Positions 45,871 to 62,735 of a stretch of 64,000 nt of DNA are shown one piece after another. Source of the stretch: Mustelus asterias (taxonomy: Eukaryota); assembly GCF_964213995.1 (NCBI RefSeq), contig NC_135821.1:73036001-73100000 (forward strand), written 5' to 3'. A model generated the notes under the pieces. It had not been told where the DNA came from and made no database searches. It saw only the letters and a list, made by a program, of their open reading frames with translations. The position numbers and the translations under genes were made by a program. Within the stretch, counting starts at the first letter, position 1, and the number at the start of each line of letters is the position of its first letter.

Positions 45871-48145
45871 CCCCCCGCTTCCTCAATACTTCCTCAATAT
45901 TCCCCAATGATTAATGGGCCACTTGATTGAAAGAACGAGTTTGATCGGATTTACTTGCAAATGGAATTAAAGAAACAAATCCAACAGTTTACATGGTTAT
46001 TAACAAATGCTTGCATTCAATTTTCACCCACTGGAATCACCGATTTTACACCGACTCCAATCTATCGGTGCAAAAGCCAGATATAAAAGCGCTGTTGTTA
46101 ATATACAGGTGAAGAAATCACGATTTCCCTGATAGCTCAGTTGGCAAAGCCGGAGATAATACTACCAACTGGGCTCAGCAAACCTGGTTTGATTTCTGGG
46201 AGTGGGATAACAAGAGGTTTGTCAAACCTGTCAATAACAATCACTATCCATTCCCTACTCGAGCTTACTGACCGAGTACTTCAGGTGTGACTAGTATTAG
46301 ATTTGACTTAATTTCACTGCAAATCCCACCTCCACATTTCTAGAAACACCTAGAGACATTCACCATAAGGAACCACCCACACGGGGGGCCATTTGTGTGA
46401 GACACGGGCATGTACCTGACATACCACATCAAGCAGCAACATATCCAAATCCCCACAGGAGGATAAGCAAAAACTTGGCCGAAATAAAAATACATTTTCA
46501 AAGCGGTGCTAAATGCTGTCCAAACATAAATGAGTGGCTTCCTTCATTAACATTAGATCTGTTTTATCTGGCTCAGATCCTACTGTTGCTGCAACACCTC
46601 ACAGTACACAAGATATTATTATACTGAATTTGAAATACGCCTGCTTGGAATCACAAACAGCATCTTAAGTTCTCAAGATTCACAACTTCATTTCAATGAA
46701 AAGCAACTACTTGTATCATGAAATTAGACGCCATAATGTGGGGGGGGGGGAAAAACAGGACTTGACCATCGTTCATTCATCTATTCGGTTATCAAAGCAG
46801 TAGCATTTCAATCCCCAAAGCCAGTTACAGGCACAATCTACCTGCACTTGCAATTCAGTCAAAACTTGAGATTGCTGTCTCTTCAGCTATTCGCTGCAAC
46901 CAGCCCTCACTTGGCACACAACCAGTGGCAAGTTACAGCACAGGAGGCCGCCATTCGGCCTTTCTTGTCCATGCCAGCCCGAAAACGCACAGGCCCTTTC
47001 TAATCCCACCTTCCTGCACCCAGCCCATAGCCCTGTAGCTTGTAGCACTTAAGGTGCAGATGCAGGCACTTTATGAAAAGAGTTTAGGGTCTCTGCCTCC
47101 ACCATCAACTTGGGCAGCGAATTCCAGACACCCTTTGCGTAACCTGTCTGATAATCTAAAGAAAATGTCAGATCAGGCCAAAGTTCCTTGCTTTTCTCAA
47201 TGAGGTAGAAAACCATTAAGCAAACAAACTTGCCAGTATTTACACAAGTCCAACAAGTCTATCTAATTAAACGTTATATACATTGCATGCCTTACTGCAT
47301 GTATTAAATCCGCACCAGAAAAAAATAGTCAAGTTTTTCCCTTCATCTCAAATAAGCATCTTAAACATACTGATTTGCTCAAGCTTATTTCACAGGTCCC
47401 TCAGAAAAGGACCCACTTGAAAGACAGCAAGTTCAAATAACCACTGCATCTGATTTTTTTTATATATAAAAGTGCTCCTGCCTCTACAGCTCTGATCCAG
47501 CTGAATATACAGCTATATTAATGTTCACTCGATAAGCCATTATAATCCCTCTTTTAAAAAATTATAAAGTCACCAATATTTTTGGTGGCGAATGAAAAAG
47601 TATTAAATCTCTGTTCATAAATAACCTCCGCCAGAATGACAGAACAATATATCCAAATTGTTTATGGGGGAAACTTGCTTTCAACTAAGTTGGAATACCT
47701 TGATTGTCAATTGGACTTTTCCTACTCAGTATTTACACAAAATTAGTGTACCTATTTTATAAACCCAATTTCTTATGCCAAATCCCCTGAAGGTACTGAT
47801 TTCTGATGAGGCGCCACACTTGCTGGAGGGTATCCTCCAGCATCTCAGTTGAGTGGCCATTTTGGGTCAGTGTGGTCTGGCAATGAGTTTCATTTAACAA
47901 CTTCAAAGTGCAGTTCCCAACAGTGATCAGCAAATAACAAACCAAGTGCGGGAATTCCAGCTGATTTCTTCACCCTAACTTAGGGTAGCCAAGATCAATT
48001 ATCAATCAATTGGGCCTCAAGATTACATAACACAGCATGTCAAGAATGGAAATCGACACCTCTGACTTTATACTGGCTAACGGTAGTAAGCTGTCAAGAG
48101 AGTTAAATACACAATGTTATATATTCACGTACATCAGTAGTTTGA

Positions 48146-48565
48146 CAGGGAGACCCCCCCATGACAGAGGAAAACACTACATGAGGAAGAGAGGTTGTTT
48201 TGCCTTTCAACTAGTGTGTAAAAAACACAATTTTGTTTATTTCCACGCAGTCCAAGACCGCCATCCTTATTGAGACTATACATGATTAGCAGCAGTTAAT
48301 ATCACTGAATAGATCCCCAAGACCCGTCCAAAGAATAAATCCCCCAAAGAGTTGGCCTAGGCTTCATGATACAGACAAGTAGCAAACAAACGGGTGCATC
48401 CAGACACAATTGAGCAGTGTTCATCATATATGACTATTTCTGTAAAAAATGGCGGTCTTGGACTGAGTGGAAAAGAAACAAAATTATGTCTTTTACACAT
48501 TAGTTGAAAGGCAAACAACCTCTCTTCCTCATGTATTGTTTTCCTCTGTTATGGTGGTCTCCCTG
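48146..48565. mobile_element. Non-autonomous DNA transposon (MITE) with ~120-bp TIRs
   Basis: CAGGGAGACC...tccaagaccgccat (48146-48264) is mirrored by atggcggtcttgga...GGTCTCCCTG (48449-48565), followed by TA. Confidence 0.8.
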
Positions 48566-51500
48566 TAAGGGTTCCTAAAAACGTGGTCAAAGAAAGCAAG
48601 CTAGAGAGATTTAGAGGACGAATTCCTCTGTCAACCTAGGCAATGAGAGTCAGTGGCATATTAAGGCATCACAGGTGAGCCCAATCCTGTTTTCAACTGA
48701 GGTAAAGTACACACTTTCTGCACAAGTTATTCAATATCAATTAGTGGCAAGAATCCTGGCACTTTTCCCTGCCTTCACCTAGGGACACTCAAGTCAACTA
48801 AATTATTTAACCTCAGAATTTAAAAAAAAAGCCCAAGGCACAAACCAGATGAAGGAGCAATGGAGAAAATGTGGACGGGAATTCAGAAATGAAGACGCAT
48901 AAGGTTGAATAAGGAAGATTTGCTGCAGAGATAGGGAAGACATAACCAAGATTCCAGGGAAAAGATCAAAAGCAATGCATATACATCACTTGCGCTGAAA
49001 ATCTGTTAGTGTGGAACAACAGAGGAAACATAGGACCAGTAGACCATTTAGACCCCCGCTACCTCATGCAACAAAATTATGGCCAAATCGAGTCCTAACT
49101 CAGCATAACACACTTTTGAGAAACAAACAGACCACAATATACTACAAAATTCTGATCCAAAAGAACCCCGTTCCTAACAAAAGGAAACAGTACGTTAAAT
49201 GACTGTTTATTCATTTCATATCCAGCTGAAGAAAATAAGCCCAGACTTCACAGTCTGCAAGCTGCTCCAGTAATACTTGTTTCTCCAGCATCAACCCTCT
49301 GCAGAGTCTGGTGGATCAACTAATCATTCAGTTCTGTGAAATGACTCAGTTCAATCCACATTTTTCCCTGGGGTTACGGAGTTCTTGGCTACTTAGTCGA
49401 GTTTACTCCTTTGATATTCTGCTTGTAGAGCTCTCTGGAAAAAACACATGAAAATAGAATGCAAAAGTGCTGCTACAGTAAAGGAATTTTTTTTAAAGTC
49501 CTGTTTCTCTTTTAAAAAGTCGTCACTAATGATTATGAGTTTCTACTGAGACACATTTATTTACACAGAAGGCTGCTGAAGACGGAATATTTTGAAACAG
49601 GAAGTGGTTTCGGCAGAAGCCATTGCATCCTTTACAGGAAAAATAAATATTAGAAGCAGAGGAAAATAGAGAGCGAGACACTGCGATTAATTTTTGCATT
49701 GCTCTGGCGATACAGGCAAGAGGTCCAAGGGCCTCCTTCTGAACTGTTCTGGAATACACACGAGCCATGAAGAAAAAAGCTTTGGTGTCTCAATGGTTGG
49801 ACATGCTTATCCAGTGAGTAGCAGTTTAATTCTTAGAAATAATTTTTCCTTTTAGTTTTTTCAATGGTTTAGTTTTATTTTTATAGCCTTCTGAACAAAA
49901 ATGACCAATTTAGTATGATCTCTTGTCCTTAATTCTAGTCAAAGGATAAGGCTACAACATTTCCAACATTTGTGCCATGATTTTTTTACAAATCTGTTAC
50001 TACAAAATTGGCGACACTGCATTTGCCCATCCCTAGTCTTCCAGAGGTGGTGACAATGAGCGCTCCCAAACCACTGCAGTCCCAGTGGTGATGGTACTCC
50101 TCCCATAATGACGTTAGCTAGGGAATTCCAAGGCAGCAATTGCTTTTTAACCAAGTCACTTGCAAATACATTTCAGAAGGCATTAAAAGACAATGGGTAG
50201 ACCAGATTTCCTTTCCCACAGGACATCAGTGAACCAGTGGGATTTCTTACAACCCTGCTGCTTTCATGGTCTAGTCCAGTAACCAAGCTGGATTCGCAAT
50301 CTAATTGTAGACATTGGTCACAATTGCTTTCAGCATGGATATAATTTTAATTTCAATCTCAACACCTCAAAAATTAGTTCTCAAATTTGAATTTTACAGT
50401 ACGAAATATCTATAACTTGCACATTTAGAACACCTTTGACATAAGGAAATAAACAACCACATTTCTTATGACACAACATGACAAGAATGAGTACCAACCC
50501 AAAGGAGACCAAAGGCTGGTTAAAGAGGTGGGCTTTAAGAAGGGTCTTAAAGAGGGAGATGGAGGGCTCGAATGGTTTAGAAAGAGAAGCCCAAAGGTGG
50601 TGCAACAGCCAAGTTAAGTGATGGATGCAAAACAGGAGTTAAGGAAGGTCTGTCTATAAGGAGGGAGTTCTAACTAAGGCAGGAGGGCACTAGAGACAAG
50701 TGAGGAGCAGGGCCTGGAAGAGAACAAAGCACAGGGATGAGAATTTTATAATTCGAGACACTGGAGAAGCAAAGCTGATGGCCAGCAAGGACAGTCCGGA
50801 ACAATGTGCAGGGTATGATACAGCAAAGAGAGTTTCAAATGAACTGATGTTTTCAGGACTCTAGATGGGGGATATGGGAGGAGGCCAGTCAATAAAAAAT
50901 ATCTAGAGTTAAGAATCTACTGATGACCACGAAACCATTGTCGACAGCTGGGGAAAATCCATCTGGTTCACCAACGTCCTTGAGGAAAGGAAATCTGCCG
51001 TCCTTACCTGGTCTGGCCTACATGATTCCAGAGCCACAGCAATGTGGTTGACTCTCAACTGCCCTCTGAAATGGCCTAGCAAGCCACTCAGCTTCAAGGG
51101 CAACTAGGAGTGAGCAATAAACACTGGTCAGCCAGCGACGCCCATGTCACATGAATGAAAAAAAAAGGAAGCGATGGGATAGTGATGCCCGGAGGTGACA
51201 AAGATCACCCACTTAGTTCCATTCTCCTACCCTCTGTCTATGCTTTTTAGTTTTTTCTTTTCTCCCCAAACGTTTGAAATTTACTCTTCATTTTAATGTT
51301 TGTGAACAAAAAGTATTAATTTTAGGCACCAACTATGCTAATTTTAAATGGATAACAATATTGATGAATAGCTAGACCCGGGAAGCCCTAGGTTTGATCC
51401 CAAGTCCGGGATTTTGCCAGTCCCAGCACAGGGCACAAGTGGTTCAGTGTCAATGGATTGGGATGAGGAGGTGGGAATTGGCGGGATTCCTGCTCCAGTT

Positions 51501-57784: not shown

Positions 57785-58240
57785 CTGGTGATGTTCAACA
57801 TGGATGCTGTCTCCTGTAGGCCAGCGGTGCTTCCCATTGTAACCGCTGCCTCCACCACCTCCTCCGCCACCTCCACTACCACCACCCCCAGCTACTCCAC
57901 TGCCACCGCCTCCCCCCAGATGCTCCCCGGGCTGCCGCTGGAAGAAATAATCCACCATGGCATCGTCCTGCGAGCGGCCCGCGGCTAGCGCAAGCGCCGG
58001 CACAACTACTGGCACGGGCGGCCCCATCGAGCCGGGGCCTTGCGTGGAAACCGAGGCGGCGGCCAGCGCCTGGGAGGCGGCGTGCTGTTGCTGCTGTTGC
58101 TGGGGGCCGGCAGCGGAGGGTCCTGTTAACACCACGGGCATGTTGTGAGCGACGCTGTTACCAAAACTGTCCTGAGGCGGCGGCTGCTGCTGCTGATACG
58201 GCTGCTGGGGGAGGGAGTCCTGCCAGAGCACTTCATTCAT
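57785..58240 (-). CDS. PUM1: Pumilio homolog 1, coding part of exon 2 (exon probably begins at 58277)
   Basis: Encodes VLWQDS...NMPVVLT...[17 protein letters not shown]...[16 protein letters not shown], the PUM1-specific N-terminal extension. Acceptor tttgcag| precedes 58277 and the donor is CAG|gtcagt, phase 0. Confidence 0.93.
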
Positions 58241-60599
58241 ACCTTAAAAACACAGGGAACAACCATTCCACCTACACCTGCAAACCAAAACACAAACAAT
58301 AAAGCAGTTTTAGATATTTTTGCAAACATTAAAAGTGTATACTTTAAAAGTAGAATTTTGTTTTTATTTTTTAGTAAGTATTTAAAAATATGCTTCCCCC
58401 CCCCCCCCAAGAACCATATAAAATGACAGAATTAGTTTGAAACATTTCCTTACTGAAAGAGGGCTTTGATAGTACTTCAACATGCAAACCCTGCCCCAAG
58501 TTCCCCACGTGTTGGAATATGCTGTTAATTTTAAAATGATCACGTGCAAATGTGAATAGAGGGAGCTTCCCCCGCCTCCTTTAAAAATAAGATTTCAGAA
58601 ATAAGGACGTGAACATCTCAAAATATTTCAGGAAATAAATCCACATATACATTTAACAAACAGAAAACAAAATTGAACAGGACGGGGATTCATTAAAATG
58701 GTTTTGAACAGCCCGTGAATCTCTCAATACATCCCATGTGTTGCAACATACTTTACAACATAAAGTAAAAATCAAATCATAAAATTCAGGGGCACATGCC
58801 AGGAAGACTTTTTTTAATATTAATTACTTCTTTGAATAGCACATGACCATGTAATCCCCTGCCTCTTATTTTCCATGTGCTTAAATGCAAGTTTACAAAT
58901 TAACACGGAAATTCAAAATATAGCAATGATATTTGACGAGCACTGAACAAGCAACAACCCCCTCACCCCTCCCCCAACCACGCATGTGTCTTGGCACTGC
59001 AGAATATAGAGATTCAAAGACAAACAGAAACCAAAATACACATTGTGCAGAAATACTAGAAGTGCTGGGCAGGGGATATTCCACACACACATTGCAAATT
59101 TTCACGGTCTCCTGATTCTTTGGTACCAAATGGAAATTATATTATTTCAATTAGGTTTTTGAATAGTGGACGAGCCTGCCATCTCATCGCTACATCTGTG
59201 TGTCTGAACATGTATTTATTAAAAATATACAAAGTCTGAACAGACGTGACCGGAAGGCGTTAAATTGCAGCTCGATTAGAAACAAGCTTTCCTCTTAATT
59301 CTGTGTAATTCACACCCCGAGTCAACCATGCTTTTTATACACGCAGCCCCATTAAAAAGGGAACATGAAGCCCAGCACACACACATCTAAAGAAAAATGG
59401 AAAACAGGGGTGAGGGGAATTTTATCAGTCAACTAAGCAAGCCCATGCATTTCACATACCTTTCAACAAAACATTGTGCTGGTTAAAATACACTTTGCAC
59501 AATTACACTGAAGATAAATTAAACAAAAAAAAAATGCCAAGTGAATTGAGTAATCAAAATGTGTGTGTGTGTGTGTACAACTATTACCCTCAGCTGAAAT
59601 CACGAAAAAAAAAGCGAAGAACTCCAAAAGAAAAATTCCTTCCCCAGTTAATGTAAAATGTGCATCATCCAAAAGCACACGAGGCAGAAAATTAACAGCA
59701 AAAAAAATCCTCATTTTAAACTCAAAATGTACGCTTCAGGAACAGCCACAGTTGGGACATATGCAGAAACCATACAACTTTCCTAATTACAGGCCTGGCA
59801 TGGGCTGCACCAACACCTACAAGAGAGAAGAATTAACACCCTAACATCTGAATTTTAGACAATACCAGCTCTCAACGCAAACTGATCCTGCACACAAACT
59901 AGCTCTCACAAATTTCACTATTCGCCCCATCAGCGTTTAAAAATATGGGAATTATAACTTACTGAAGAGTGTTTATTCTCTCCCCCCCCCCTCCCCCCCC
60001 TTTCCCTGAGGCAACCTTGTTTTTTGTTGTACCTTACCGAGGAGCAAAATAACCCATTCCCACCCAGAGGAGGGGAAAAAATCATTTCTTTTGCAAGTGT
60101 ACTTAAGTGCCCACATATTATTTCACAGCAAAGCAGACCCCCTTTTTTTTGCAAAACAAAATCTTAGTTTCACCCAAGTGCAATGTCCTCCACACACCAC
60201 CACCACCCCCCCCCCCCCCCCCATTTCACAATCCTTTTGATCCAGGCGTAGATTTCGAGCTTATTTCAGAGCCAGTAAACAAATATTTCAATTGATGTTG
60301 CAATGGTGAAAATAGCCCCAGTTGTCTCATGCACTGAAACTAGCCTCCCTTCCCCATTGTAAAAAAAAAGCCTCGGTTTCCTGAAATAATTGAAAGCAGC
60401 ACATTTTCCTTGGCCCTCCCCGCAAACTTTAAGCATCTGGCTTTGTGCAGAAGTGGGTCAGCCTTTAAATGGACCCCCTTTCCCCCTCTTAAAGTGCCCC
60501 CCATTAGTGACAATGCTGCCTGTGCCTCCCCTCCCCCACACACACACACATACACACACATTACAACAATGGCCCCCGAGCTCAAAACACTGGGCAGAA

Positions 60600-60900
60600 A
60601 GGGGCGCGGGAGGAAAAGTAATCGCACCGTTTCTCCCCCTCCGGCGCCCCGCCGCCCCTCAATATCGGGCCCGCCGGCTCGCCGGGCGTCTCGGGTGTCG
60701 ACTGGCGGGGTCGGGCGGCGGTACTCACGGGCAGAGAGGGCGGATTGCAGCGGATTGCGGCCCCCCTTTCTCCGAGGCTTCTCTGTCTACAACATGGCGC
60801 TACGCTGGGACACTCAGGCGCAAGGCATGCTGGGCGAGGGCAGCCTCCCCTCCCCCACCCACTTCCCTCTCTGCCTTTGTCTCCCTCACAGCATCTTGCA
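60600..60900. promoter_or_regulatory. CpG-island promoter of PUM1 with YY1-type motif (AACATGGCG, 60791-60799)
   Basis: Dense CpG and GC boxes in an otherwise CpG-poor window, surrounding exon 1. Confidence 0.75.
60729..60805 (-). other. PUM1: PUM1 non-coding exon 1 (5' end approximate)
   Basis: The minus strand reads gcgccATGTTGTAG...ggggggccgcaatcc...ctctgccc|gtgagta, with a strong donor after 60729, inside a CpG island. It resembles my recollection of the human PUM1 5'UTR (GCCGCCATGTTG...CCGCCC|GTGTTGGTGGAATG). Confidence 0.75.
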
Positions 60901-61050
60901 AACAGGTGCCAGCTTCACCTCCCCCCCTTCATACCCCCTTCAAAACCCACCCTCACCATCATCTAACCCTTCCATTTATTAATATCCTTCATTCCCACAA
61001 CTTAAAACTCAATTCAGGAGTGCAAAGAAAAGGGGGAGAAAGACACCAGA

Positions 61051-61666
61051 CCTTTATTTCAAAACACTGACAATGCAATTAATTGCAAATCACAAAATGT
61101 GGCCTAATTTCTCTTATTGTATATTTACATTAAGATCCACACATTTCTCCCCCCCCCCCCAATGAAGTTATTTAGCCCTCCTTCAATTAAAAATAAACTT
61201 TATTGCAAAGCACACTGACAATGCAATTGCAAACCACAAAATGCGGCCTAATTTCTCTTATTGTAATATTTACATTATGGTCCACATATTCTCCTCCCCC
61301 CCACTTTAAGTTATTTAGACCTCGTTAAATTATAAAGAAAGCAGGAAACTTTCTTTCAAAGCACTAACAGTGCAATTGTAAACCATGAAATGTGGCTTAA
61401 TTTCTCTTATTGTATATTTACATTATGGTGAACACATTTCCCAAACCCAACCCCACCATCAAATTATTTAGCCCTCCTTATATTCAAAAGGAAAAAAAAT
61501 CCTTTCAAAACACTGACAATGCAGTTGCATACCACAAAATGTGGCCTCATTTCTCTTATTGTATATTTACATTATGGTCCATACATTTCTCTTCCCCTCC
61601 CCCCCCCTCCCGCCCCCCCAAAAAAGTTATTTTGCCCTCGTTAAATTAAAAAGCAAGCAGGAAAAT
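61051..61666. repeat. Tandem array of 4 diverged ~150-bp units upstream of PUM1 exon 1
   Basis: Units start at about 61051, 61198, 61349 and 61500. They share cactgacaatgca...aaatgtggcctaatttctcttattgtatatttacatta, then a C-rich run, then agttatttagccctc. Confidence 0.95.
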
Positions 61667-62735
61667 AAATTAAGGGCAATGTCGCATGCCCTGGACAGAC
61701 TCTCGTCAGCTGGAAGCTGCAAAAAACAAAGTGCTGCTTGGTTTTTATTTTGGCATGGTGAATTTGTACATGCAAGTTTGTGCAACCGGCAGCTGAAGGC
61801 GGATTTTCGTCGCAGGCCGATGACGGTGTTGCGTTCACACTCCTCGAGAGCAAATCGTACGAGGGGCACAGGAGTCGAGTACAGAAAGCAGCGCAGTGTG
61901 ATATTTTTTGCAGTGGGCAGCACTTAGATGCGAATTGGACATTAACCAGGACAGCTAACGTGTCCAAAAGAGCAGTGGACAGGAACGGGGACGGGGGGAG
62001 GGAGGGGAGAAATGTAAGGGAAAATGTAAGGCACGATTCTAGAATTTGGAACAGCAACAGCAATATAAGGGAATGAAGACTTGTGGAAAGGAGAGAGTGG
62101 CAGGAAGAGGGCACACATCAGTGTCCTGGATAGTATTTATCCCTCAAATGGACATCATAAAAACATGAGTGTGGCTGGAAAAAAAAGACATTTATTGTTG
62201 AAGTTTTTCATCTTGGACTCATCAGGACATTCGCAAGAGTACAATATCAGAGGAAATCAACAAAATTATTGTATATCAGAAGAGAGTGCTGATTGATTAG
62301 CAGGTGGATTCTGATTGATAATGGTGTTGCCATGGCAAATGCACCAGTTGATGGTGACCGACAATTAAAAGATATTAGTTGGCACACTGACGTTAGTGCT
62401 GTGCACTAATTAGCTGCCTGGAACAGTGATTAAACTGCAAAAGTACTTTATTGGTTGTAAAGCACTTTGGGACGTCCTTTGGTTGCGAAGGGTGTTAGTT
62501 AAATGCAAATTTATTTTCCTTCTCATTTGCCCCAACTGTTGCACCTTGACGATCTTAGCCAGGTGGGAGTTCCAAAAATGTACGTTTATGCAAACAATAT
62601 ACCATTTATACAGTGCCTTTAACATAAGGAAATGTCCAAAGGGTAGGTGACCATACCCAAGGAGAGGGCACCATTTGCAATATTAGGGCCCGGGAAGAAA
62701 ATTTCGGTCAGCTGTTTATGGGAGACTGGGTCAAA

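Follow-up and report, generated by a model that had tools for sequence, protein, structure and literature searches.

A tandem repeat with Pumilio-type octamers upstream of PUM1 in Mustelus asterias, a possible copy-variable promoter module

The DNA analysed here, called the window below, is a stretch of 64,000 nucleotides from Mustelus asterias. The host gene belongs to the Pumilio family and is read from the minus strand; its PUF repeats are at C21:72.998-73.016 Mb. A paralog was located on C5, and we take the two genes to be PUM1 (C21) and PUM2 (C5), names presumed from the human gene order. Upstream of the first coding exon of PUM1, a likely non-coding exon 1 with its core promoter was recognized (Table 1). 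It ends in a GT donor at 60728, and the CpG observed/expected ratio is 0.97 over 60560-60830. A CGCCATGTT motif, which we take to be YY1-like, occupies 60791-60799, and a GCATGC motif stands further upstream. The pair GCATGC ... CGCCATGTTG (about 60791-60825) recurs at PUM2, some 2 kb before exon 2 of that gene, and is likely to be a core promoter common to the two genes. The tandem array that is the subject of this study begins, by this likely start, about 250 bp upstream of PUM1. Distal to it comes a single-copy patch whose CpG count was reached by 30 of 908 tiles, so that the array sits between two CpG-rich patches. The distal patch, which was also found in organisms B, C and E (see below), is a candidate second promoter or enhancer.

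Table 1. Coordinates, in the window, of the array and of the PUM1 features around it
Feature	Positions	Strand	Remarks
PUM1 exon 2	57785-58277	minus	first coding exon
Likely PUM1 non-coding exon 1 and core promoter	60729-60830	minus	inferred from sequence
Tandem array	61052-61664	.	four units of ~149 bp, single locus
Unit 1	61050-61195		approximate bounds
Unit 2	61196-61346		approximate bounds
Unit 3	61347-61495		approximate bounds
Unit 4	61496-61664		approximate bounds
Block, unit 1	61107-61132	.	26 nt without substitutions; TGTAAATA at 61122-61129, minus
Block, unit 2	61251-61277	.	a one-base insertion adjoins the octamer; TGTAAATA at 61267-61274, minus
Block, unit 3	61400-61425	.	TGTAAATA at 61415-61422, minus
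Block, unit 4	61549-61574	.	TGTAAATA at 61564-61571, minus
G-tract, unit 1	61149-61160	minus	one per unit, length variable
G-tract, unit 2	61296-61302	minus	
G-tract, unit 3	61440-61454	minus	
G-tract, unit 4	61594-61619	minus	
AATAAA, unit 1	61053-61058	minus	units 1 and 2 only
AATAAA, unit 2	61199-61204	minus	
CpG-rich patch	61670-61960	.	single copy, distal to the array; 16 CpG, o/e 0.91

Several observations concern the genes themselves. The first two ATGs of PUM1 exon 2, at 58266 and 58240, are in different frames. The earlier one opens an upstream frame of 9 codons (58266-58237, minus strand), and the stop codon of this frame overlaps the start of the main one; the corresponding pair of ATGs in this genome's PUM2 shares one frame. 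The short frame is either a real uORF that could lower PUM1 translation or an assembly error close to a run of T. Four more minus-strand matches to TGTANATA fall within 2.3 kb of a PUM1 intron (47237-49565), outside repeats. Human PUM1 introns hold snoRNAs; an Rfam search of the PUM1 introns over window positions 1-64000 returned no family at gathering score. Further upstream on the same strand, NKAIN exons are spread 190-410 kb from PUM1. An intronless RhoB-like gene is located 97 kb upstream of PUM1 (C21, about 73193647-73194228, plus strand), and a RhoB-like gene 75.6% identical to it is located 70 kb upstream of PUM2 (C5, about 94476917-94477504). Judged by this gene content, the two neighbourhoods are paralogous PUM-Rho blocks; no such gene is known beside human PUM1.

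The array itself was reported by Tandem Repeats Finder with a period of 149, 3.7 copies and 78% matches over 61052-61597, the final unit extending to about 61664. Its unit cores share 85-92% pairwise identity, its G+C content is 36%, and its presence is far beyond chance. This agrees with a preliminary sequence-only reading, which had described four diverged units of about 150 bp starting some 250 bp upstream of PUM1, the start site being in both cases inferred from sequence. That reading had also noticed an octamer, TGTAAATA on the PUM1 strand, kept in every unit, and a G-rich tract per unit on the same strand; the four octamer positions proved exact, and the tracts were found at four places between 61149 and 61619, each about 20 nt upstream of an octamer site. 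The four array octamers are part of 17 matches to TGTANATA in the window, where 7.7 are expected. A looser Pumilio response element (PRE)-like site, TGTATATT, is present on the plus strand in three of the four units and derives from a TGTA-N4-TACA dyad. The G-tracts are likely points of slippage or unequal exchange. At the boundary of units 1 and 2, about 400 bp from the likely PUM1 start, AATAAA motifs stand back-to-back on both strands (61192-61204) and could end divergent transcripts. A plus-strand branch point with pyrimidine tract was considered and dropped, because no AG follows downstream.

The sequence-only reading would have lost its ground had the unit been a dispersed satellite or transposon. 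A genome search with the whole array gave one match from one candidate, and a four-unit profile run over 264 kb around PUM1 retrieved these four units only. All three genome matches of an 18-mer from the conserved block fell inside the array. A 15-mer had 19 genome matches (30 for the control), three of them inside the array, and in the 10 outside loci that were examined, none extended into a unit. The unit is therefore locus-specific and a dispersed element was discarded, although these were loose first-look searches which very old copies could escape. A search for the source of the unit in the PUM1 3' UTR or neighbourhood revealed no similarity beyond C-tracts in 264 kb. At PUM2, nothing below E 1.2 was detected in 200 kb, but this is a weak test for a homologue, because the region is filled by a 36-bp minisatellite that adjoins an assembly gap. 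This 5.7-kb minisatellite (C5:94406637-94412344) also contains the likely PUM2 core-promoter motif (C5:94407776); either tandem repeats flank this PUM promoter as well, or the region is misassembled. The possibility that the array marks the 3' end of an upstream gene was also rejected: none of 16 open frames tested matched Pfam, and the closest NKAIN exon on that strand lies about 190 kb off.

Inspection of the aligned units revealed 26 consecutive substitution-free columns among 86, of which 20 are variable, the sole break being the insertion beside the octamer of unit 2. A run of this length has a p value of 0.004 in a base-stratified permutation, and of 0.025 with a looser statistic. The octamer lies inside this block in every unit, as the sequence-only reading had it when it placed the motif in the best-conserved part. 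However, 71% of the core columns are invariant, so that eight given columns would all be invariant with a probability of 0.064. Invariant eight-column windows number 12 in the 86 columns, and the octamer belongs to the invariant stretches along with 18 adjacent columns. The block is thus three times the length of the octamer, with 18 of its 26 bases outside it. The question, raised by the earlier reading, of whether the octamer decays at the rate of the rest of the unit had a mixed answer: it is slower than the unit as a whole, but no better kept than its 18 neighbours in the block. Pumilio binding alone would for this reason be insufficient to account for the constraint, and the alignment offers modest evidence that a block as long as three PREs is under constraint.

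What the block could bind as DNA was considered by comparison with consensus motifs. All four units fit forkhead (RYAAAYA, and the longer TRTTTACWYW), POU (ATGYAAAT) and SOX-like (ACAAT) motifs. That the octamer doubles as a forkhead site was already a caveat of the sequence-only reading. The forkhead core RYAAAYA is found in 385 of 1765 tiles and its match in the units is not significant; it is so common that the factor names given here are guesses.

To these data were added contigs of four other organisms, B, C, D and E, aligned to 60550-62050; they represent 4 of the 20 records, among 21 listed, that contain part of the stretch, and organisms F, G and H, with their small shares, as well as unlabelled samples were left out. 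None of the records listed was of RNA, which speaks neither for nor against expression. The array was present next to exon 1 in all four, and in each a single contig spans exon 1 into unit 1. Relative to the window, these promoter-spanning pieces show 6 differences in 569 bases, 20 in 641, 21 in 690 and 22 in 583 (1-4%), and the distal flank is 5.5-6.6% different in B, C and E. Array pieces differ by about 2.5-16%, which is more than the promoter-spanning pieces and about equal to, or more than, the distal flank. Copy number is variable between organisms, as extra units occur within single contigs of C and E. In organism E, one contig of 1,506 bases contains five placed unit positions and probably a sixth, and further contigs of equal depth bring the estimated total to about 7-10 units; organism C has one extra distal unit, and organism B about 4-6 units. 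Across organisms, unit number thus runs from about 4 to 10, these figures being estimates taken from 32 of 269 pieces, in which contigs may be alleles. Several of the cross-species joints are located at C-tracts, which would fit unequal exchange there. The unit-1 AATAAA was changed in three of the four organisms (C, D and E). None of 27 cross-species array differences fell inside the block among those listed; this is a weak and non-independent test, since 128 of 168 rows are outside that list and some units were placed on non-orthologous units. An organism E piece with no difference over 106 bases was discounted as a sign of strong constraint, as it overlaps pieces of the same record where differences appear; the zero is probably a counting artefact.

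The reading that we favour, and to which we give an even chance of being right, is that the array is a lineage-specific, copy-variable promoter repeat of PUM1, likely multiplying a candidate block of transcription-factor sites. A piece of PUM1 upstream DNA of about 149 bp would have been duplicated in tandem at this one locus, and units would then have been gained and lost at the C/G tracts, where unequal exchange or slippage would occur, while selection maintained the 26-nt block. The block would act as DNA, with a forkhead- or POU-like site and, next to it, a SOX-like one being bound by factors, and unit number would tune PUM1 transcription. On this account the match to the Pumilio element would be an ancestral octamer, also a forkhead-type site, that was passively carried along by duplication, and its adjacency to a PUM gene would be a coincidence. 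Just four related copies stand behind the block, and gene conversion could equally keep them uniform; the divergence of the array, above that of the promoter-spanning pieces and about equal to, or more than, that of the distal flank, also speaks against the DNA module.

This leads to the main competitor, which we consider rather unlikely yet a serious contender: a long-period duplication arose by chance near the promoter, its copy number drifts, and the block owes its uniformity to slow evolution, to the small number of copies and to gene conversion. Unit number varies among organisms and units seem reshuffled, as expected of a neutral minisatellite, and the array evolves no more slowly than its distal flank. 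Unit cores differ by 8-15%, about twice the flank divergence between organisms; as this is only 8-15%, the duplications need not much predate the split of the organisms. No homologue of the unit was detected in 200 kb around PUM2, and minisatellites with PREs are common in this genome, where 23,669 overlapping matches to regularly spaced PRE triplets were counted against 2,032 for a control, at no fewer than 12 separate places among 100 matches listed. Set against neutrality are the invariant run of 26 columns, with the p values given above, and the retention of the array in all four other organisms, no more than 250 bp from the promoter of a gene that is sensitive to dosage. Moreover, organism E has one unit in which the bases flanking the octamer are changed and the alignment runs on through the octamer itself, a single data point.

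Among the PRE- or forkhead-rich minisatellites of the genome, of which there are many, a long 27-bp satellite at C1:1.80-1.84 Mb has numerous units with TGTAAATA or TGTAAACA.

Both of the preceding accounts treat the Pumilio match as incidental, and this match has to be weighed in its own right. Any 149-bp unit would contain the octamer on one chosen strand with a chance of about 1-2% (14 of 1765 tiles; 1.8% in Markov shuffles). Duplication then multiplied this single ancestral occurrence. The 464 kb of sequence analysed include 16 long-period tandem rows, among which the PUM1 array alone bears PREs, and it does so beside a PUM gene and on the right strand, which counts against the DNA module. 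It is a real coincidence, yet one event from a very large scan, and it keeps alive the idea of an RNA role.

In that RNA role, which widens the proposal of the sequence-only reading, a putative transcript would cross the array and be bound by PUM, with feedback or a small decoy as the outcome: the RNA would be bound and degraded, or would sequester PUM. We regard this as improbable. Two routes can be imagined, one from the distal CpG patch along the PUM1 strand, where the product would be a long leader or an upstream RNA, and one as a divergent transcript of the PUM1 promoter on the opposite strand. In line with the first, the PUM1 strand has four perfect UGUAAAUA sites next to a PUM gene, with the odds per unit just given, and the distal patch might start such a minus-strand RNA. 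The looser plus-strand site in three of the four units means that a divergent transcript could bind PUM too. There are precedents in NORAD, which grew by tandem duplication, in the self-repression of a fungal Pum1 through its 5' UTR, and in divergent lncRNAs, described as frequent at the promoters of regulators (PMC3882496).

Several observations are difficult to reconcile with an RNA role. The array precedes the likely start motif that PUM1 has in common with PUM2, a placement that suits the DNA module instead. A leader starting at 61670 would contain 21 ATGs, and the array has no GTRAG donor. A shared fold was absent, with 0 of 17 and 0 of 16 pairs compensated on the two strands, and z scores of -0.73 to +1.10 on the PRE strand. 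AATAAA is present in two of the four units, and its unit-1 copy is lost in three of the four other organisms. Most conserved bases, as seen above, are beyond the octamer. Finally, an ordinary feedback route exists, for the PUM1 3' UTR has 2 canonical and 5 looser PREs in the first 1.9 kb past the stop codon; PUM2 likewise has PREs after its stop codon. In the published account, PREs flanked by A/U are strongly repressed, whereas the G/C-flanked sites of NORAD bind with limited repression (PMC11602169). Since the sites of the array are A/U-flanked, albeit with a G-tract about 20 nt before each, an array RNA would be more a target than a decoy.

A comparison with NORAD, the eutherian lncRNA that serves as a decoy for PUM1/2, sharpens this point. 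As described, NORAD units arose by tandem duplication and have the PRE in their most conserved part (PMC4947167); the array likewise consists of tandem-duplicated units with the PRE in the most conserved part, a canonical one in all four. NORAD is reported as a 5.3-kb capped, polyadenylated and abundant cytoplasmic RNA of 12 units of about 300 nt, with 17-20 PREs and conserved hairpins (PMC4947167, PMC7617650), and as offering about 20 sites in hundreds to thousands of copies per cell (PMC7617650). In contrast, the array is a 0.6-kb stretch of DNA with 4 sites and no conserved hairpin, attached to the PUM1 promoter. Because it falls short in valency and in conserved hairpins, it was not classed as NORAD-like, and the indirect evidence leans against a NORAD-like decoy. 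The larger proposal, that one lineage of non-mammalian vertebrates independently built at the PUM1 promoter a NORAD-like module of 4 to about 10 sites, setting PUM dosage via unit number, is doubtful to the same degree as the RNA role.

Other Pumilio genes have elements of their own. In Cryptococcus neoformans, Pum1 is described as repressing itself via a 5' UTR element which an alternative start site excludes (PMC4806291). The resemblance lies in a Pumilio element that precedes the PUM coding sequence and would be included or not according to start-site choice; the fungal gene, however, has a single element, demonstrably bound, in a 5' UTR that has been mapped, whereas the array has four, is ATG-rich and lies upstream of the likely start. 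Auto- and cross-regulation of vertebrate PUM1 and PUM2 through 3' UTR PREs is also on record (10.1101/751909, PMC7798263). These are the same type of element at PUM genes, but they belong to the 3' UTR of the mRNA, whereas the array falls outside the likely PUM1 mRNA.

Two lesser hypotheses concern the motifs that accompany the octamer. The order UGUA, AAUAAA, then U- and G-rich sequence is the layout of a poly(A) site, and units with this order could form a tandem termination or insulator cassette that stops transcripts into or out of the promoter. On the minus strand of units 1 and 2, TGTA does precede AATAAA by about 65 nt and U-rich and G-rich tracts follow, and the overlapping AATAAA of both strands at 61192-61204 would fit as well. 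Nevertheless, a terminator is very unlikely: the motif is absent from units 3 and 4 and, in organisms C, D and E, altered in unit 1, and no upstream gene ends nearby, by the Pfam and NKAIN results given above. A period of about 150 nt with an invariant core of about 26 nt also resembles miRNA clusters, and the array might be a cluster of small structured RNAs, precursors of miRNAs or H/ACA snoRNAs. The plus strand of unit 1 folds better than shuffles (z -3.08), but the remaining 7 of the 8 unit-strand folds have z scores of -1.5 or above, neither strand's fold shows covariation, and Rfam gave no match at gathering score in the window, the best over the array having an E value of 3.6. Of all the readings, this one has the slimmest prospect.

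The favoured copy-variable promoter module finds its closest relatives in a described class, promoter-proximal VNTRs or minisatellites with transcription-factor sites (e.g. PMC3762855). Like these, the array is a single locus of head-to-tail units whose copy number varies between genomes, it lies next to a promoter with a likely start site, and it repeats a factor-like motif. It differs from them by its long period of 149 bp, by units that are 8-15% diverged, and by a variation known between organisms. A description of the array, or of a non-mammalian analogue of NORAD, was not found in those titles and abstract openings of the open-licence literature that the searches brought up.

As a DNA module, the array would be a modest new example of a promoter repeat. 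Were the RNA role true, it would represent a Pumilio decoy or feedback element that is linked in cis and evolved by convergence. Human PUM1 is sensitive to dosage, a 25% loss leading to ataxia (PMC10233381), and no NORAD homologue is reported in more basal vertebrates or outside eutherians (PMC4947167). For these two reasons, a conserved, copy-variable module at the PUM1 promoter is a natural candidate for setting the level of PUM in another lineage of vertebrates.
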